A stretch of DNA of 10,309 nucleotides from a virus (Duplodnaviria; Heunggongvirae; Uroviricota; Caudoviricetes), in IMG/VR virus record IMGVR_UViG_2585427736_000001, one strand, 5' to 3'. The notes beneath the pieces are model-generated. The model was not told the DNA's origin. It searched no databases and worked only from the letters and a program-made list of their open reading frames with translations. This document shows, piece by piece, positions 3,366 to 10,309 of this stretch (position 1 is the stretch's first letter; each line of letters opens with the position of its first letter). Position numbers and translations under genes: made by a program.

Positions 3366-3581
3366 ATGACGCTTGAGCGAATCAGCGCCTTTATCACGTA
3401 TTGCATCGCCGTTGTGCTGGCCTGGCTGGGCGATTTGTCCATCAAGGATGCCTCAACGCTGGGTGGCCTGATGATTGGTGTGCTGATGCTGGCTATCAAC
3501 TGGTACTACAAACACAAAGCCTACCAGCTTCTGCGCGACGGGCAGATCTCGCGGGAGGATTATGAATCCATCAATCGTTAA
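3366..3581 (+). CDS. holin, class II (two predicted TMDs), possibly a pinholin
   Basis: 71-aa protein with two hydrophobic stretches (ISAFITYCIAVVLAWLG and LGGLMIGVLMLAINWYY) and a charged C-terminus; sits at the position of P2 holin Y; 3' end overlaps the endolysin start by 20 nt. Confidence 0.7.
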   Translation: MTLERISAFITYCIAVVLAWLGDLSIKDASTLGGLMIGVLMLAINWYYKHKAYQLLRDGQISREDYESINR

Positions 3582-4074
3582 ACGCTGCCTTGTCGGGGCC
3601 GTGCTGGCTATTGCTGCCACGCTGCCGGGTTTTCAGCAACTTCACACCTCCGTGGAGGGGCTGAAACTGATTGCCGATTACGAAGGCTGTCGTCTGCAGC
3701 CGTATCAGTGCAGCGCGGGTGTCTGGACCGACGGCATTGGTAATACATCTGGCGTCATTCCAGGCAAAACCATTACGGAACGACAGGCAGCGGAAGGGCT
3801 GATCTCCAACGTGCTACGTGTGGAGCGGGCACTGGAAAAGTGTGTGAAGCAACAGCCGCCGCAGAAGGTGTATGACGCTACGGTGTCGTTTGCCTTCAAC
3901 GTGGGGACGGGCAATGCCTGCAGTTCCACGCTGGTGAAATTGCTCAACCAGCGGCGCTGGGCGGATGCGTGCCGACAGTTGCCGCGCTGGGTTTATGTAA
4001 AAGGTGTGTTTAATCAGGGGCTGGATAACCGCCGTGTGCGGGAGATGGCCTGGTGTTTACAGGGAGCAAACTGA
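3562..4074 (+). CDS. SAR endolysin, GH24 (T4/P1-type) lysozyme
   Basis: 170 aa; N-terminal weakly hydrophobic Gly/Ala-rich segment KRCLVGAVLAIAATLPGF (signal-anchor-release type); catalytic motif DYEGCRLQPYQCSAGVWTDGIGNT with Glu41 and Thr56 aligning to T4 lysozyme E11/T26; GGAGG RBS 5 nt upstream of ATG. Confidence 0.85.
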   Translation: MNPSIVKRCLVGAVLAIAATLPGFQQLHTSVEGLKLIADYEGCRLQPYQCSAGVWTDGIGNTSGVIPGKTITERQAAEGLISNVLRVERALEKCVKQQPPQKVYDATVSFAFNVGTGNACSSTLVKLLNQRRWADACRQLPRWVYVKGVFNQGLDNRRVREMAWCLQGAN

Positions 4075-4453: not shown

Positions 4454-4878
4454 ACCGGTTGCTGCTGGTTGTGCTGGCGTTATTACTGGCGGCGCTGGGC
4501 TGGCAGACGTGGCGGCTGGCTGATGCCAGCCAGACCATCAGCACGCAGGCAGACGAACTGCAGAGCAAAAGCCAGGCGCTGGCAAAGAGCAACAGCCAGC
4601 TTATCAGCCTGTCCATTCTGACTGAAACCAATAACCGGGAGCAGGCGCGGCTCTATGCCGAAGCAGAACAGACCAGCGCGCTGCTGAGACAACGACAACA
4701 CCGGATTGAGGAACTGAAACGTGAGAACGAGGATTTACGCCGCTGGGCTGATACTCCTTTGCCTGCTGACATTATCCGGCTGCGGGAACGTCCGACGCTC
4801 ACCGGAGGTGCAGCTTACCGTCAGTGGTTGTCCGCGAGTGACGCCGTGTTGGCTGGATCAGGCAGCGCCGCGCACTAA
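4450..4878 (+). CDS. lysB: i-spanin (Rz-like; P2 LysB equivalent)
   Basis: 142 aa; N-terminal TMD LLLVVLALLLAALGW followed by a charged, Gln/Glu/Arg-rich predicted coiled-coil region (EELKRENEDLRRW); an o-spanin gene overlaps its 3' portion in another frame. Confidence 0.8.
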   Translation: MNRLLLVVLALLLAALGWQTWRLADASQTISTQADELQSKSQALAKSNSQLISLSILTETNNREQARLYAEAEQTSALLRQRQHRIEELKRENEDLRRWADTPLPADIIRLRERPTLTGGAAYRQWLSASDAVLAGSGSAAH

Positions 4879-7742: not shown

Positions 7743-8340
7743 TCTGCTGCCACCGGGTTCAACTTCACTGGAGCGCCGACTGGCGCAAACCTGTAGCGGG
7801 ATTTCTGATCTGCAGGTGCCGCTGCGTGACTTGTGGAATCCGGCGACTTGTCCGGTCAGTTTCCTGCCTTATCTCGCCTGGGCGTTCTCTGTGGATCGCT
7901 GGGACGAGAGCTGGACAGAAAGCGTCAAACGCCAGGTGGTGAAGGATGCTTTTTATATTCATCAGCACAAAGGAACCACCAGTGCCGTGCGGCGGGTGGT
8001 GGAGCCGTTCGGCTTCCTGATCCGCATTATTGAGTGGTGGCAGACCGGAGAAACACCGGGCACGTTTCGCCTGGATATCGGCGTGCAGGACCAGGGCATC
8101 ACTGAAGATACCTATCTGGAACTTGAGCGGCTGATAAGCGATGCCAAACCATGTAGCCGTCACATGATCGGCATGTCCATCAATCTGCAGACCAGCGGTC
8201 CGCATTGGGTGGGGGCCGCCAGCTATCTTGGCGAAGAAATCACGATCTATCCGTATATCAACGAAACAATTATTTCCGGCGGCACCGCGCATGAAGGCGG
8301 GGCGGTCCATGTTATTGACACAATGAGAGTGAATCCATGA
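7735..8340 (+). CDS. I: baseplate/tail protein I (P2 gpI family)
   Basis: 201 aa; overlaps the J stop (ATGAATAG); position between J and the tail fiber gene as in P2. Confidence 0.85.
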   Translation: MNSLLPPGSTSLERRLAQTCSGISDLQVPLRDLWNPATCPVSFLPYLAWAFSVDRWDESWTESVKRQVVKDAFYIHQHKGTTSAVRRVVEPFGFLIRIIEWWQTGETPGTFRLDIGVQDQGITEDTYLELERLISDAKPCSRHMIGMSINLQTSGPHWVGAASYLGEEITIYPYINETIISGGTAHEGGAVHVIDTMRVNP

Positions 8341-9839
8341 GCACAAAATTTTATACCCTGCTGACGGATATTGGCGCGGCGAAACTTGCCAGCGCCGCCG
8401 CGCTCGGTGTGCCGCTAAAAATTACCCATATGGCGGTGGGCGATGGCGGCGGAACATTGCCAACGCCGGACGCCAAGCAGACAGCATTGGTAAATGAGAA
8501 ACGCCGGGCTGCGCTGAATATGCTCTATATCGACCCGCAGAACAGCAGCCAGATTATTGCTGAACAGGTGATCCCTGAAAACGAGGGCGGTTGGTGGATA
8601 CGTGAAGTGGGCCTGTTTGATGAGTCCGGGGCATTGATTGCCGTGGGCAACTGCCCGGAAAGCTATAAGCCGCAACTGGCTGAAGGCAGCGGGCGTACCC
8701 AGACCGTGCGCATGGTGCTGATTACCAGCAGCACGGACAATATCACCCTGAAAATCGACCCTGCCGTAGTGCTGGCAACCCGCAAGTATGTGGATGACAA
8801 GGTACTGGAGCTGAAGGTGTACGTGGATGATCAGATGGCAAAACATCTTGCCGCACCGGACCCGCATTCACAGTATGCACCCAAAGAAAGTCCGACGTTT
8901 ACCGGGACACCAAAAGCGCCAACTCCAGCGGCAGGGAATAACACCACGCAGGTTGCGACCACCGCGTTTGTTCAGGCGGCACTGACGGCTCTTATTAATG
9001 GTGCGCCAGCCACGCTGGACACGCTGAAAGAAATAGCCGCAGCCATTAACAATGATCCGAATTTCAGTACCACCATTAACAATGCGCTGGCACTGAAAGC
9101 GCCGTTGTCGAGTCCGGCACTCACCGGAACGCCAACAGCCCCCACTGCTGCACAGTCGGTCAACAATACACAGATTGCCACCACGGCTTTTGTGAAATCG
9201 GCGATTGCAGCAATGGTAGGTTCTGCACCTGCGGCACTGGATACACTGAACGAACTGGCGTCGGCGTTGGGGAATGATCCGAACTTTGCCACGACAATGC
9301 TTAATGCGCTGGCAGGTAAACAACCGCTGGACAATACGCTGACTAATTTGAGTGGAAAGGATGTCGCTGGTCTTCTCGCATACCTTGGAATAGGAGAAAC
9401 GGGAAAATACGACATTCTGCCAGCATCAAGAGGAGGCACTGGAGCGTCAACTATAGCCGGAGCATTGATAAACTTTGGTCTGAGTGATTTAGTGACTGCC
9501 GGATTAGTACAGGTGGAATCTGGTACAGACTTTATTACTGCTAAGATTCCGTTTCTGTCCGGTGGTAAAAAGCGATTCCTGATGATTCATGCCATCAAGG
9601 CGACAATGCCAGCAAATAATAATGGCTATAACCTTACCGTTACGTTCCCGACTGCCTACGATAACGCACCTATACCTATTCTTGGATCAACTGTAGGACT
9701 GACGTCAACAACGGGCGGTACAACAGAGTCAATGAATATTTCATCAGTCACAAAATCGGGTTGCATCATTTCTTCAGCATGGCAAACATGGTCTGAGGGA
9801 CCGGTATATCTTTTAACGATTGGAGGAGTTGCAGCATGA
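8337..9839 (+). CDS. H: tail fiber protein H (P2 gpH family) with conserved N-terminal domain and variable C-terminal receptor-binding region
   Basis: 500 aa; ATGA overlap with I; N-terminus MSTKFYTLLTDIGAAKLASAAALG... typical of P2/Mu-type tail fibers; internal tandem fiber repeats; low-GC C-terminal portion. Confidence 0.9.
   Translation: MSTKFYTLLTDIGAAKLASAAALGVPLKITHMAVGDGGGTLPTPDAKQTALVNEKRRAALNMLYIDPQNSSQIIAEQVIPENEGGWWIREVGLFDESGALIAVGNCPESYKPQLAEGSGRTQTVRMVLITSSTDNITLKIDPAVVLATRKYVDDKVLELKVYVDDQMAKHLAAPDPHSQYAPKESPTFTGTPKAPTPAAGNNTTQVATTAFVQAALTALINGAPATLDTLKEIAAAINNDPNFSTTINNALALKAPLSSPALTGTPTAPTAAQSVNNTQIATTAFVKSAIAAMVGSAPAALDTLNELASALGNDPNFATTMLNALAGKQPLDNTLTNLSGKDVAGLLAYLGIGETGKYDILPASRGGTGASTIAGALINFGLSDLVTAGLVQVESGTDFITAKIPFLSGGKKRFLMIHAIKATMPANNNGYNLTVTFPTAYDNAPIPILGSTVGLTSTTGGTTESMNISSVTKSGCIISSAWQTWSEGPVYLLTIGGVAA
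8889..9332 (+). repeat. two tandem copies of a 74-codon (222-bp) tail-fiber repeat inside H
   Basis: SPTFTGTPKAPT...TTQVATTAFVQAAL...APATLDTLKEIAAAINNDPNFSTTINNALALKAPL (8889..9110) versus SPALTGTPTAPT...NTQIATTAFVKSAI...APAALDTLNELASALGNDPNFATTMLNALAGKQPL (9111..9332); roughly half the positions identical by eye. Confidence 0.75.
9373..9398. other. candidate 26-bp serine-invertase crossover site (gix/hix/cix-like) inside H
   Basis: TTCTCGCATACC-TT-GGAATAGGAGAA: imperfect dyad of two 12-bp half-sites around a central dinucleotide, with the ACC-TT-GG core resembling remembered hix/gix sites; lies at the GC-content break in H. Confidence 0.45.
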
Positions 9840-10222
9840 AATATTATTCACCTTCAATTAATGGATTTCCCGAACAAAAGACTGATGACAGTATTGAGAT
9901 CAGTGAAGAGGTCTGGAGAATACTTCTTAGTGAAATTTACTCAGGCCGGGAGTTATTTAACGATGGCGGCGTACCCGCTACCCGTGTGCCGCAACCTACG
10001 CAAGAACAAGTAATTGCAGCCGCAGAAAATGAGCGCCAACGATTGCTGAATTATGCTGATACCGTAATGCTCGACTGGCGTACAGAATTGATGCTGGGTG
10101 AAATCAGCGACGCCAACAGGGCTAAATTGTCGGCGTGGCTGGCTTATAAAAATCAAGTTAAGTCGGTTGATGTGACAACTGACCCTGAGCATGTTAACTG
10201 GCCTATTCCCCCGGAGGCGTAG
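9836..10222 (+). CDS. G: tail fiber assembly protein / chaperone (P2 gpG / Mu U / Tfa family)
   Basis: 128 aa; ATGA overlap with H; C-terminus ...KLSAWLAYKNQVKSVDVTTDPEHVNWPIPPEA is the conserved tail-fiber-assembly C-terminal motif; AT-rich like the H 3' end. Confidence 0.85.
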   Translation: MKYYSPSINGFPEQKTDDSIEISEEVWRILLSEIYSGRELFNDGGVPATRVPQPTQEQVIAAAENERQRLLNYADTVMLDWRTELMLGEISDANRAKLSAWLAYKNQVKSVDVTTDPEHVNWPIPPEA

Positions 10223-10309
10223 GCCATTCAATATCTGGCGCACCGGAAGTATCGACCAGTTCCAGTGCGTCCAGATAATCCAGCCACGAATTATATTGCG
10301 CCAGTTCCT
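10203..10309 (-). CDS. 3' end (C-terminal 34 codons) of a second, convergent tail fiber assembly gene; 5' part lies beyond the window
   Basis: Reverse-complement translation of 10309..10206 gives ELAQYNSWLDYLDALELVDTSGAPDIEWPTPPGE followed by stop (10205..10203), the same C-terminal motif family as G; not in the ORF track because no start codon lies within the window. Confidence 0.6.
   Translation of the reverse strand, partial: ELAQYNSWLDYLDALELVDTSGAPDIEWPTPPGE

Follow-up and report, generated by a model that had tools for sequence, protein, structure and literature searches.

A P2-like prophage sequence that very probably ends at the midpoint of an e14/Mu-type invertible tail fibre segment, with a near-palindrome between convergent chaperone genes as a by-product

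Invertible tail fibre segments are of a textbook kind, exemplified by the G segment of Mu, the C segment of P1, and the P segment of e14. For Gin, Hin, and Cin, a Fis-dependent recombinational enhancer lies within the invertase gene, towards its 5' end. The described systems closest to the locus analysed here are the e14 P segment of Escherichia coli K-12 (stfP-tfaP / tfaE-stfE, with pinE), P2-like prophage loci of E. coli and Klebsiella (such as those of 500465-1 and the EPEC E2348/69 prophages), and the Mu G segment (S-U / U'-S', with gin). Measurements have shown phase variation in P2-like prophages, and inversion of both the e14 and the P2-like prophage loci was measured by sequencing and PCR (PMC4272514). 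The e14 segment has also been inverted on demand, and its inverted repeat was published as TTGGTTTGGGAGAAGG (PMC12529663).

The window (the whole 10,309-nucleotide stretch of DNA that was analysed, IMG/VR record IMGVR_UViG_2585427736_000001) carries a late region of the P2-like (Peduoviridae-type) kind. Pfam domains found in it include Phage_GPO, Phage_cap_P2, Phage_term_smal, Phage_GPL, Baseplate_J, and Tail_P2_I, the gene order is O N M L ... V W J I H G, and the annotation of a 96%-identical relative (L001) agrees. Escherichia phage 500465-1 and a set of Klebsiella prophage records match the window at 96% identity over 92% of its length. The taxonomy line of one related record, L005 (OM835953.1, Klebsiella phage KP12 clone KP12_3), names the Vequintavirinae, but what matches in it is an invertase-bearing tail module of the P2-like type; the record is probably a prophage fragment that was co-assembled and then assigned to the wrong phage.

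The window itself ends at 10309. Its continuation was taken from contig L011 (IMGVR_UViG_2609459831_000007), with relatives in support; this contig is 100% identical to window positions 9385 to 10309 over 925 bp and carries G', Hv', the second crossover site, and the invertase. Composite positions run on from the window into this contig. The features of the region are these:

8337 to 9839, plus strand: tail fibre gene H (500 aa), with a Pfam Phage_tail_fib N-terminal domain (3.1e-65).
Up to the 9385/9386 crossover point, plus strand: constant N-terminal part of H; with many relatives, the homology stops at about 9398 to 9407.
9373 to 9398, either strand: left crossover site TTCTCGCATACC-TT-GGAATAGGAGAA, core dinucleotide 9385-9386, inside H, encoding ...LAYLGIGE...
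9386 to 9839, plus strand: Hv, the variable C-terminal part of H, inside the predicted invertible segment.
9836 to 10222, plus strand: G, tail fibre assembly chaperone (128 aa; Caudo_TAP, 2.1e-19), serving the Hv tip that H carries at present.
10199 to 10226, either strand: near-palindrome TGGCCT-N16-AGGCCA, 28 bp, 11 of 14 pairs complementary.
10203 to 10309, minus strand: 3' end of G' (the stop and the 34 codons before it), the chaperone gene for the alternative tip that is now silent, from translation and Caudo_TAP.
L011, to 1611, minus strand: Hv', alternative fibre C-terminus, with a Gp53-like_C domain.
L011 1598 to 1623, either strand: right crossover site TTCTCCTAAACC-AA-CATTTATGAAAA, ahead of the invertase gene.
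L011 1679 to 2245, plus strand: serine invertase (Resolvase, 2.2e-53; HTH_7, 1.4e-15).

The adjacent serine invertase has a catalytic resolvase domain and a C-terminal helix-turn-helix, and its VRVSTNDQ block, home of the family's catalytic serine, is invariant in PinE and Gin. When the last 2 kb of the window served as a megablast query, 2531 of 5426 complete E. coli genomes matched in the constant part of H, but only two (L001 and L002, both 96% identical) over the whole stretch. After G, these two continue with a complete Tfa gene and a fibre C-terminus (Gp53-like_C) on the minus strand, a 'recombinase family protein' of 188 aa on the plus strand, and the P2 tail sheath gene. The gene order of L011 is also that of L001, L002, and L043 (96 to 97% identical), in which the tail sheath gene FI follows. 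The Hv-G cassette (window 9400 to 10202) was complete in only 3 of the 5426 genomes.

The e14 P segment shares with the window segment its gene order, its type of crossover site, an 85%-identical invertase, and the same tail-to-tail joint (TGGCCTACGCCTCCGGCAGTTCAGGCCA in e14). It differs in its backbone, which is defective lambdoid rather than P2-like, in the length of the segment (1797 bp versus 1611 bp), and in its fibre-tip and chaperone cassettes. The overlap of tfaP and tfaE is longer, at 29 bp against 20 bp, because the residue after Trp-Pro is Glu in TfaE and Ile in G of the window. The P2-like prophage loci of E. coli and Klebsiella have the backbone of the window, the order H-G/G'-Hv'-invertase-FI, and the overlapping joint, but mostly carry other Hv-G cassettes and mostly overlap by 29 bp. 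The Mu G segment likewise has a constant fibre N terminus, two convergent cassettes of tip plus chaperone, and an adjoining serine invertase (Gin, 74% identical). Unlike the window, Mu (L086) has U and U' 28 bp apart (3504 to 3531) with no overlap, in a segment of ~3 kb, and this gap holds a hairpin, AAGGCCCG-ATAG-CGGGCCTT (z = -4.7 and -5.1), whereas e14/P2-type segments are without a dedicated terminator between their chaperone genes. The system is therefore already known, down to the overlapping joint, which is annotated in E. coli K-12; a full-text literature search for accounts of the overlap between the chaperone genes returned nothing relevant. It is only in details, a rare Hv-G cassette and a symmetric 20-bp overlap, that the window is unusual.

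The first-pass annotation of the window had two tail fibre assembly genes converging at 10199 to 10309 and overlapping by 20 bp at their 3' ends, and both points stood up to re-reading. G ends ...HVNWPIPPEA*, with its TAG stop at 10220 to 10222, and a minus-strand frame that is open from the window edge ends ...ELAQYNSWLDYLDALELVDTSGAPDIEWPTPPGE*, with its TAG on 10205 to 10203, so that the two share 10203 to 10222. The remaining two minus-strand frames at the window edge are closed or unrelated. Both genes match Pfam Caudo_TAP (PF02413) at their C-terminal ends, the conserved WP motif included. G scores 70.4 bits (2.1e-19), the 34-aa fragment of G' in the window scores 40.5 bits by itself (3.6e-10, profile positions 99 to 130 of 131), and full-length G' scores 118.7 bits (2.5e-34, positions 2 to 130 of 131), all above the gathering cut-off of 22.1 bits. 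G and G' are 32% identical to each other. It had been left open that the minus-strand frame might be a pseudogene remnant, with early stops or no N-terminal domain. This was rejected, as G' in the 100%-identical L011 is intact (143 aa, 819 to 1250 on the minus strand, reaching composite position 10634) and spans nearly all of the Caudo_TAP profile.

The near-palindrome at 10199 to 10226 reads TGGCCTATTCCCCC|GGAGGCGTAGGCCA, and a recount returned the same 11 of 14 complementary pairs that had been reported for it. Its attribution to one conserved C terminus encoded on both strands was also borne out, since W-P-x-P-P is coded by each strand. Both chaperones end in the conserved family motif ...D(I/V)xWPxPP. 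The left half of the 28-mer holds the WPIPP codons of G and is read in antisense by G' as GE*, and the right half holds the WPTPP codons of G' and is read in antisense by G as EA*. The Trp-Pro codons of each gene thus lie opposite the stop and the post-stop bases of its partner. Because the Trp codons of the antiparallel genes are set 28 bp apart, the last 2 to 6 codons and the stop of each gene come from the antisense of the partner's WPxPP. Our reading from this arrangement is that the near-palindrome is a by-product of two homologous C termini coded antiparallel.

The same arrangement accounts for the length of the overlap. TAG arises as the complement of CCT-A, in which a Pro codon precedes a codon that begins with A. 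In the window, Trp-Pro is followed by ATT (Ile) in G and by ACG (Thr) in G', and because both partners have an A-initial codon there, both stop early and symmetrically, leaving a 20-bp overlap. When G has Val or Glu at this position, G' reads CAG instead and runs for three codons more, to a 29-bp overlap. This is what is found in L001 to L005, in which G has GTT (Val) or GAA (Glu), G' is extended to QAS* or QAR*, and the overlap is 29 bp. A single A/G difference at 10205 separates the 20-bp state of the window from its closest relatives.

Three palindromes of 28 bp with at least 11 of 14 pairs were counted in the window (starting at 1820, 2885, and 10199), against a mean of 0.46 per window in dinucleotide shuffles, and the palindrome was accordingly rejected as statistically exceptional on its own. 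The other two, at 1820 to 1847 and 2885 to 2912, have 11 of 14 pairs each and lie in the capsid gene and in the region of the head-completion gene. Three such palindromes in one window exceed the shuffle expectation, as 1% of shuffles reached that number.

What takes the joint beyond chance is its recurrence. The same 28-bp Trp-Pro...Pro-Trp joint is present in 59 of 60 related viral loci, in 14 further genome loci, and in e14. Among the convergent chaperone pairs of the 60 viral contigs, the overlap is 29 bp in 54 and 20 bp in 5, and the remaining pair, on a P1-sized contig of 101 kb, is separated by a 3-bp gap; the 20-bp overlap of the window is thus a minority state, since most relatives carry the base G at 10205 and overlap by 29 bp. 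There are 21 distinct joint 28-mers, with 6 to 11 of 14 pairs complementary, and the window stands at the top of this range. In data with one genome per species, the 28-bp Trp-to-Trp spacing was also found in Trabulsiella, Siccibacter, Pseudescherichia, Citrobacter, Buttiauxella, Kluyvera, Pluralibacter, and Mangrovibacter, with overlaps of 29, 26, 20, or 17 bp that are set by the stop positions. In Dryocola sp. BD586 (L093, ~4702 to 4831), the convergent chaperone frames overlap by 130 bp and the Trp-Pro of the partner is altered (GGCCCAG); this copy is probably decaying and has lost a stop or undergone a frameshift.

The tail-to-tail chaperone genes had been proposed to mark the middle of an invertible fibre segment, and the DNA on either side agrees with this: two crossover sites flank them, a Pin/Gin-type invertase is next door, and the centre of the palindrome (10212/10213) is 22 bp off the geometric centre of the segment (10190). 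The two 26-bp sites are inverted relative to each other and have matching TT and AA cores. Both resemble the sites of e14 and the gix sites of Mu, as taken from annotated records, and also the published e14 inverted repeat; the left one matches the left site of e14, CTCTCGAAAACCTTGGTTTGGGAGAA, and the layout of Mu gix. The sites were spotted by eye and confirmed by mismatch scans; a generic inverted-repeat search on L001 and L002 missed them, as they are too short and degenerate, and the core pattern AAACCNNGGTTT, searched with 2 mismatches allowed, matched the window only at the level of chance. The inner half of the left site (9387 to 9398) is GGAATAGGAGAA, as against the usual GGTTTGGGAGAA or GGTTTAGGAGAA of e14, L003, L004, and the right site, with the atypical GGAATAG in place of GGTTTGG. 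To judge from these letters, the atypical half could lower the efficiency of inversion, so that the window copy would invert slowly.

The predicted segment is 1611 bp long and runs from window position 9385 to composite position 10995. Inverting this block in silico produced an in-frame H' of 468 aa (...GLLAYLGLGEAAK...; ...GLLAYLGLGEAAKMDVGTG...), with G' starting 2 nt past the H' stop. The left site lies inside the fibre gene, and the in-silico flip swaps the tip in frame and brings the matching chaperone in behind it.

Taken together, these observations lead us to place the end of the window at the midpoint of an e14/Mu-type invertible tail fibre segment in a P2-like prophage, with the palindrome as a by-product, at a probability of about 0.88. 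Such a segment would consist of two convergent cassettes, each a fibre tip with its own Tfa chaperone, Hv-G on the plus strand and Hv'-G' on the minus strand. An invertase of the Pin/Gin family would exchange strands at the central dinucleotides of the two 26-bp sites, and each flip would change the tip, Hv or Hv', that continues the constant part of H in frame, with the matching chaperone directly downstream. Going by the family, inversion is expected to depend on Fis and an enhancer.

It is possible, though we think it rather unlikely, that the joint is more than a by-product and has been selected as a universal coupling, in which the Tfa 3' coding sequence and the fixed 28-bp spacing serve as a homologous recombination site for swapping half-cassettes between phages. 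G modules that differ from one another to the left of the palindrome are identical to the window from CCGGAGG rightwards. When C-terminal regions were clustered at 85% identity to define chaperone types, the G'-like type 1 had types 0, 3, and 4 as partners and type 0 (TfaE-like) had more than 10 partner types, the spacing being always the same. Moreover, the same Hv-G/G'-Hv' segment occurs in a non-P2 (e14-like, ymfQ/pinE) element of E. coli USMARC-49610, so whole invertible segments are shared between unrelated phage backbones. Reassortment of this kind, however, points to recombination somewhere in or near the ~100-nt Tfa 3' region and not to selection of the palindrome or the overlap. Common descent from one ancestral joint, with both frames kept open, explains the constant spacing equally well, and the segments of Mu, P1-like phages, Pantoea, and Photorhabdus function without any overlap. 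That the spacing stays at 28 bp in cassettes that otherwise differ greatly could still reflect selection on the joint beyond dual coding. That the fixed spacing is a selected coupling that joins any two half-cassettes with neither spacer nor terminator, the short stem giving a modest, orientation-independent RNA 3' end, is a more doubtful proposition still, and we consider it distinctly unlikely.

The shared copy just mentioned lies at 3697 to 6223 of L167 (E. coli USDA-ARS-USMARC-49610, NZ_CP104123.1). It is 96.5% identical, has the 20-bp overlap, and stands beside pinE; the baseplate genes of the element are of the Mu/e14 type (gp46, gp47, and ymfQ).

Under the preferred reading of an active invertible segment, both orientations should be met with in nature, and among relatives they are. 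In loci gathered with an invertase query, the commonest joint faced one way relative to the invertase gene in 26 cases and the other way in 16; this concerns the same joint in relatives and is indirect evidence for the copy in the window. Position 1 of L011 is the central TT of the left site (9385), and many genome contigs stop short of the invertase gene, 70 to 200 bp upstream of it. Both kinds of break probably reflect assemblies broken by populations that hold both orientations. From these patterns we infer that the window's own copy also inverts.

Alternatively, the overlap may be real and the copy a frozen relic that no longer inverts, with G' and Hv' as silent leftovers. The non-consensus inner half of the left site (GGAATAG versus GGTTTGG) and the rarity of the Hv-G cassette (3 of 5426 complete E. 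coli genomes) would fit such a history. Against them stand the intact state of G', Hv', and the invertase alike, the in-frame inverted form, and the L011 break exactly at the core dinucleotide, which is expected if the sequenced population holds both orientations. In addition, such a cassette is found flipped in one viral locus, with WPTPPGGQAS* on the plus strand and HVNWPVPPEA* on the minus strand. We regard a frozen relic as very unlikely.

The first-pass annotation had also suggested, with a hedge, that the palindrome might act as a bidirectional RNA hairpin at the two gene ends, and this part was not supported. A functional hairpin (a terminator, pause site, or 3'-end stabiliser) would halt late transcription in mid-segment in either orientation and so spare the silent cassette antisense transcription. 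A terminator at this place is biologically plausible, because Mu and Pantoea have hairpins there: the 28-bp U/U' gap of Mu holds the strong GC hairpin given above, which a terminator scan calls terminator-like on one strand, and the Pantoea element has AAAGCCCGC-TAT-GCGGGCTTTTT at the corresponding place, in a 26-bp gap. In the window, a fold of -14 to -16 kcal/mol is possible on both strands. The stem, however, lacks a U-tract on either strand, its tails being UUCAAUAUC on the plus strand and GUUAACAUG on the minus strand, and the terminator scan made no call over the joint. That scan is insensitive, since it called nothing at the Pantoea locus (L155), where the gap can be seen to hold a GC hairpin, and the comparison with Mu therefore rests mainly on folding z-scores.

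These z-scores are weak. In a 51-nt context, the window joint reaches only -1.5 and -1.75, with 11 to 12 of 200 shuffles folding as well, and overall its values range from -1.5 to -2.4; the commonest joint variant, that of e14, has -0.6 and -0.2. Across the 21 distinct joints, only the outer 5 to 6 pairs are constant, being fixed by the Trp-Pro codons, and the inner ones are mostly broken. All measures of covariation across these joints were below the shuffle mean, with 482 to 498 of 500 shuffles at or above the observed value. A T-run hairpin outside the segment, past the right site, could moreover serve both orientations. The joint thus has neither the stem plus U-tract of an intrinsic bidirectional terminator nor the combination of stability and compensatory changes, a terminator role of the palindrome is not supported, and a functional bidirectional hairpin is in our estimation highly improbable.

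The outside hairpin, AACTGGCATCATC(T/C)CCGGTT followed by TTTTATT, lies at L011 1640 to 1659 (composite 11024 to 11043) and at L001 7743 to 7762. It is upstream of the invertase gene, just outside the right site, and is a candidate for terminating the H-G transcript whichever way the segment faces.

Should the joint turn out to be a selected coupling after all, it would amount to a design rule for the modular host-range cassettes of e14-like and P2-like Enterobacteriaceae phages. The reading of a known type of invertible segment, which we prefer, has consequences for annotation, as H would have two alternative C termini and 9385/9386 would be a frequent break point in assemblies. Past position 10309, the same reading predicts G', an alternative fibre tip, a second crossover site, and a Pin-type invertase. 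In e14/P2-type segments, whose two chaperone genes share their last 20 to 29 bp, the C-terminal tail of each chaperone past WPxPP is dictated by its partner. The end of the window would then be the midpoint of a host-range switch, and this bears on how the host range of the phage is to be judged.
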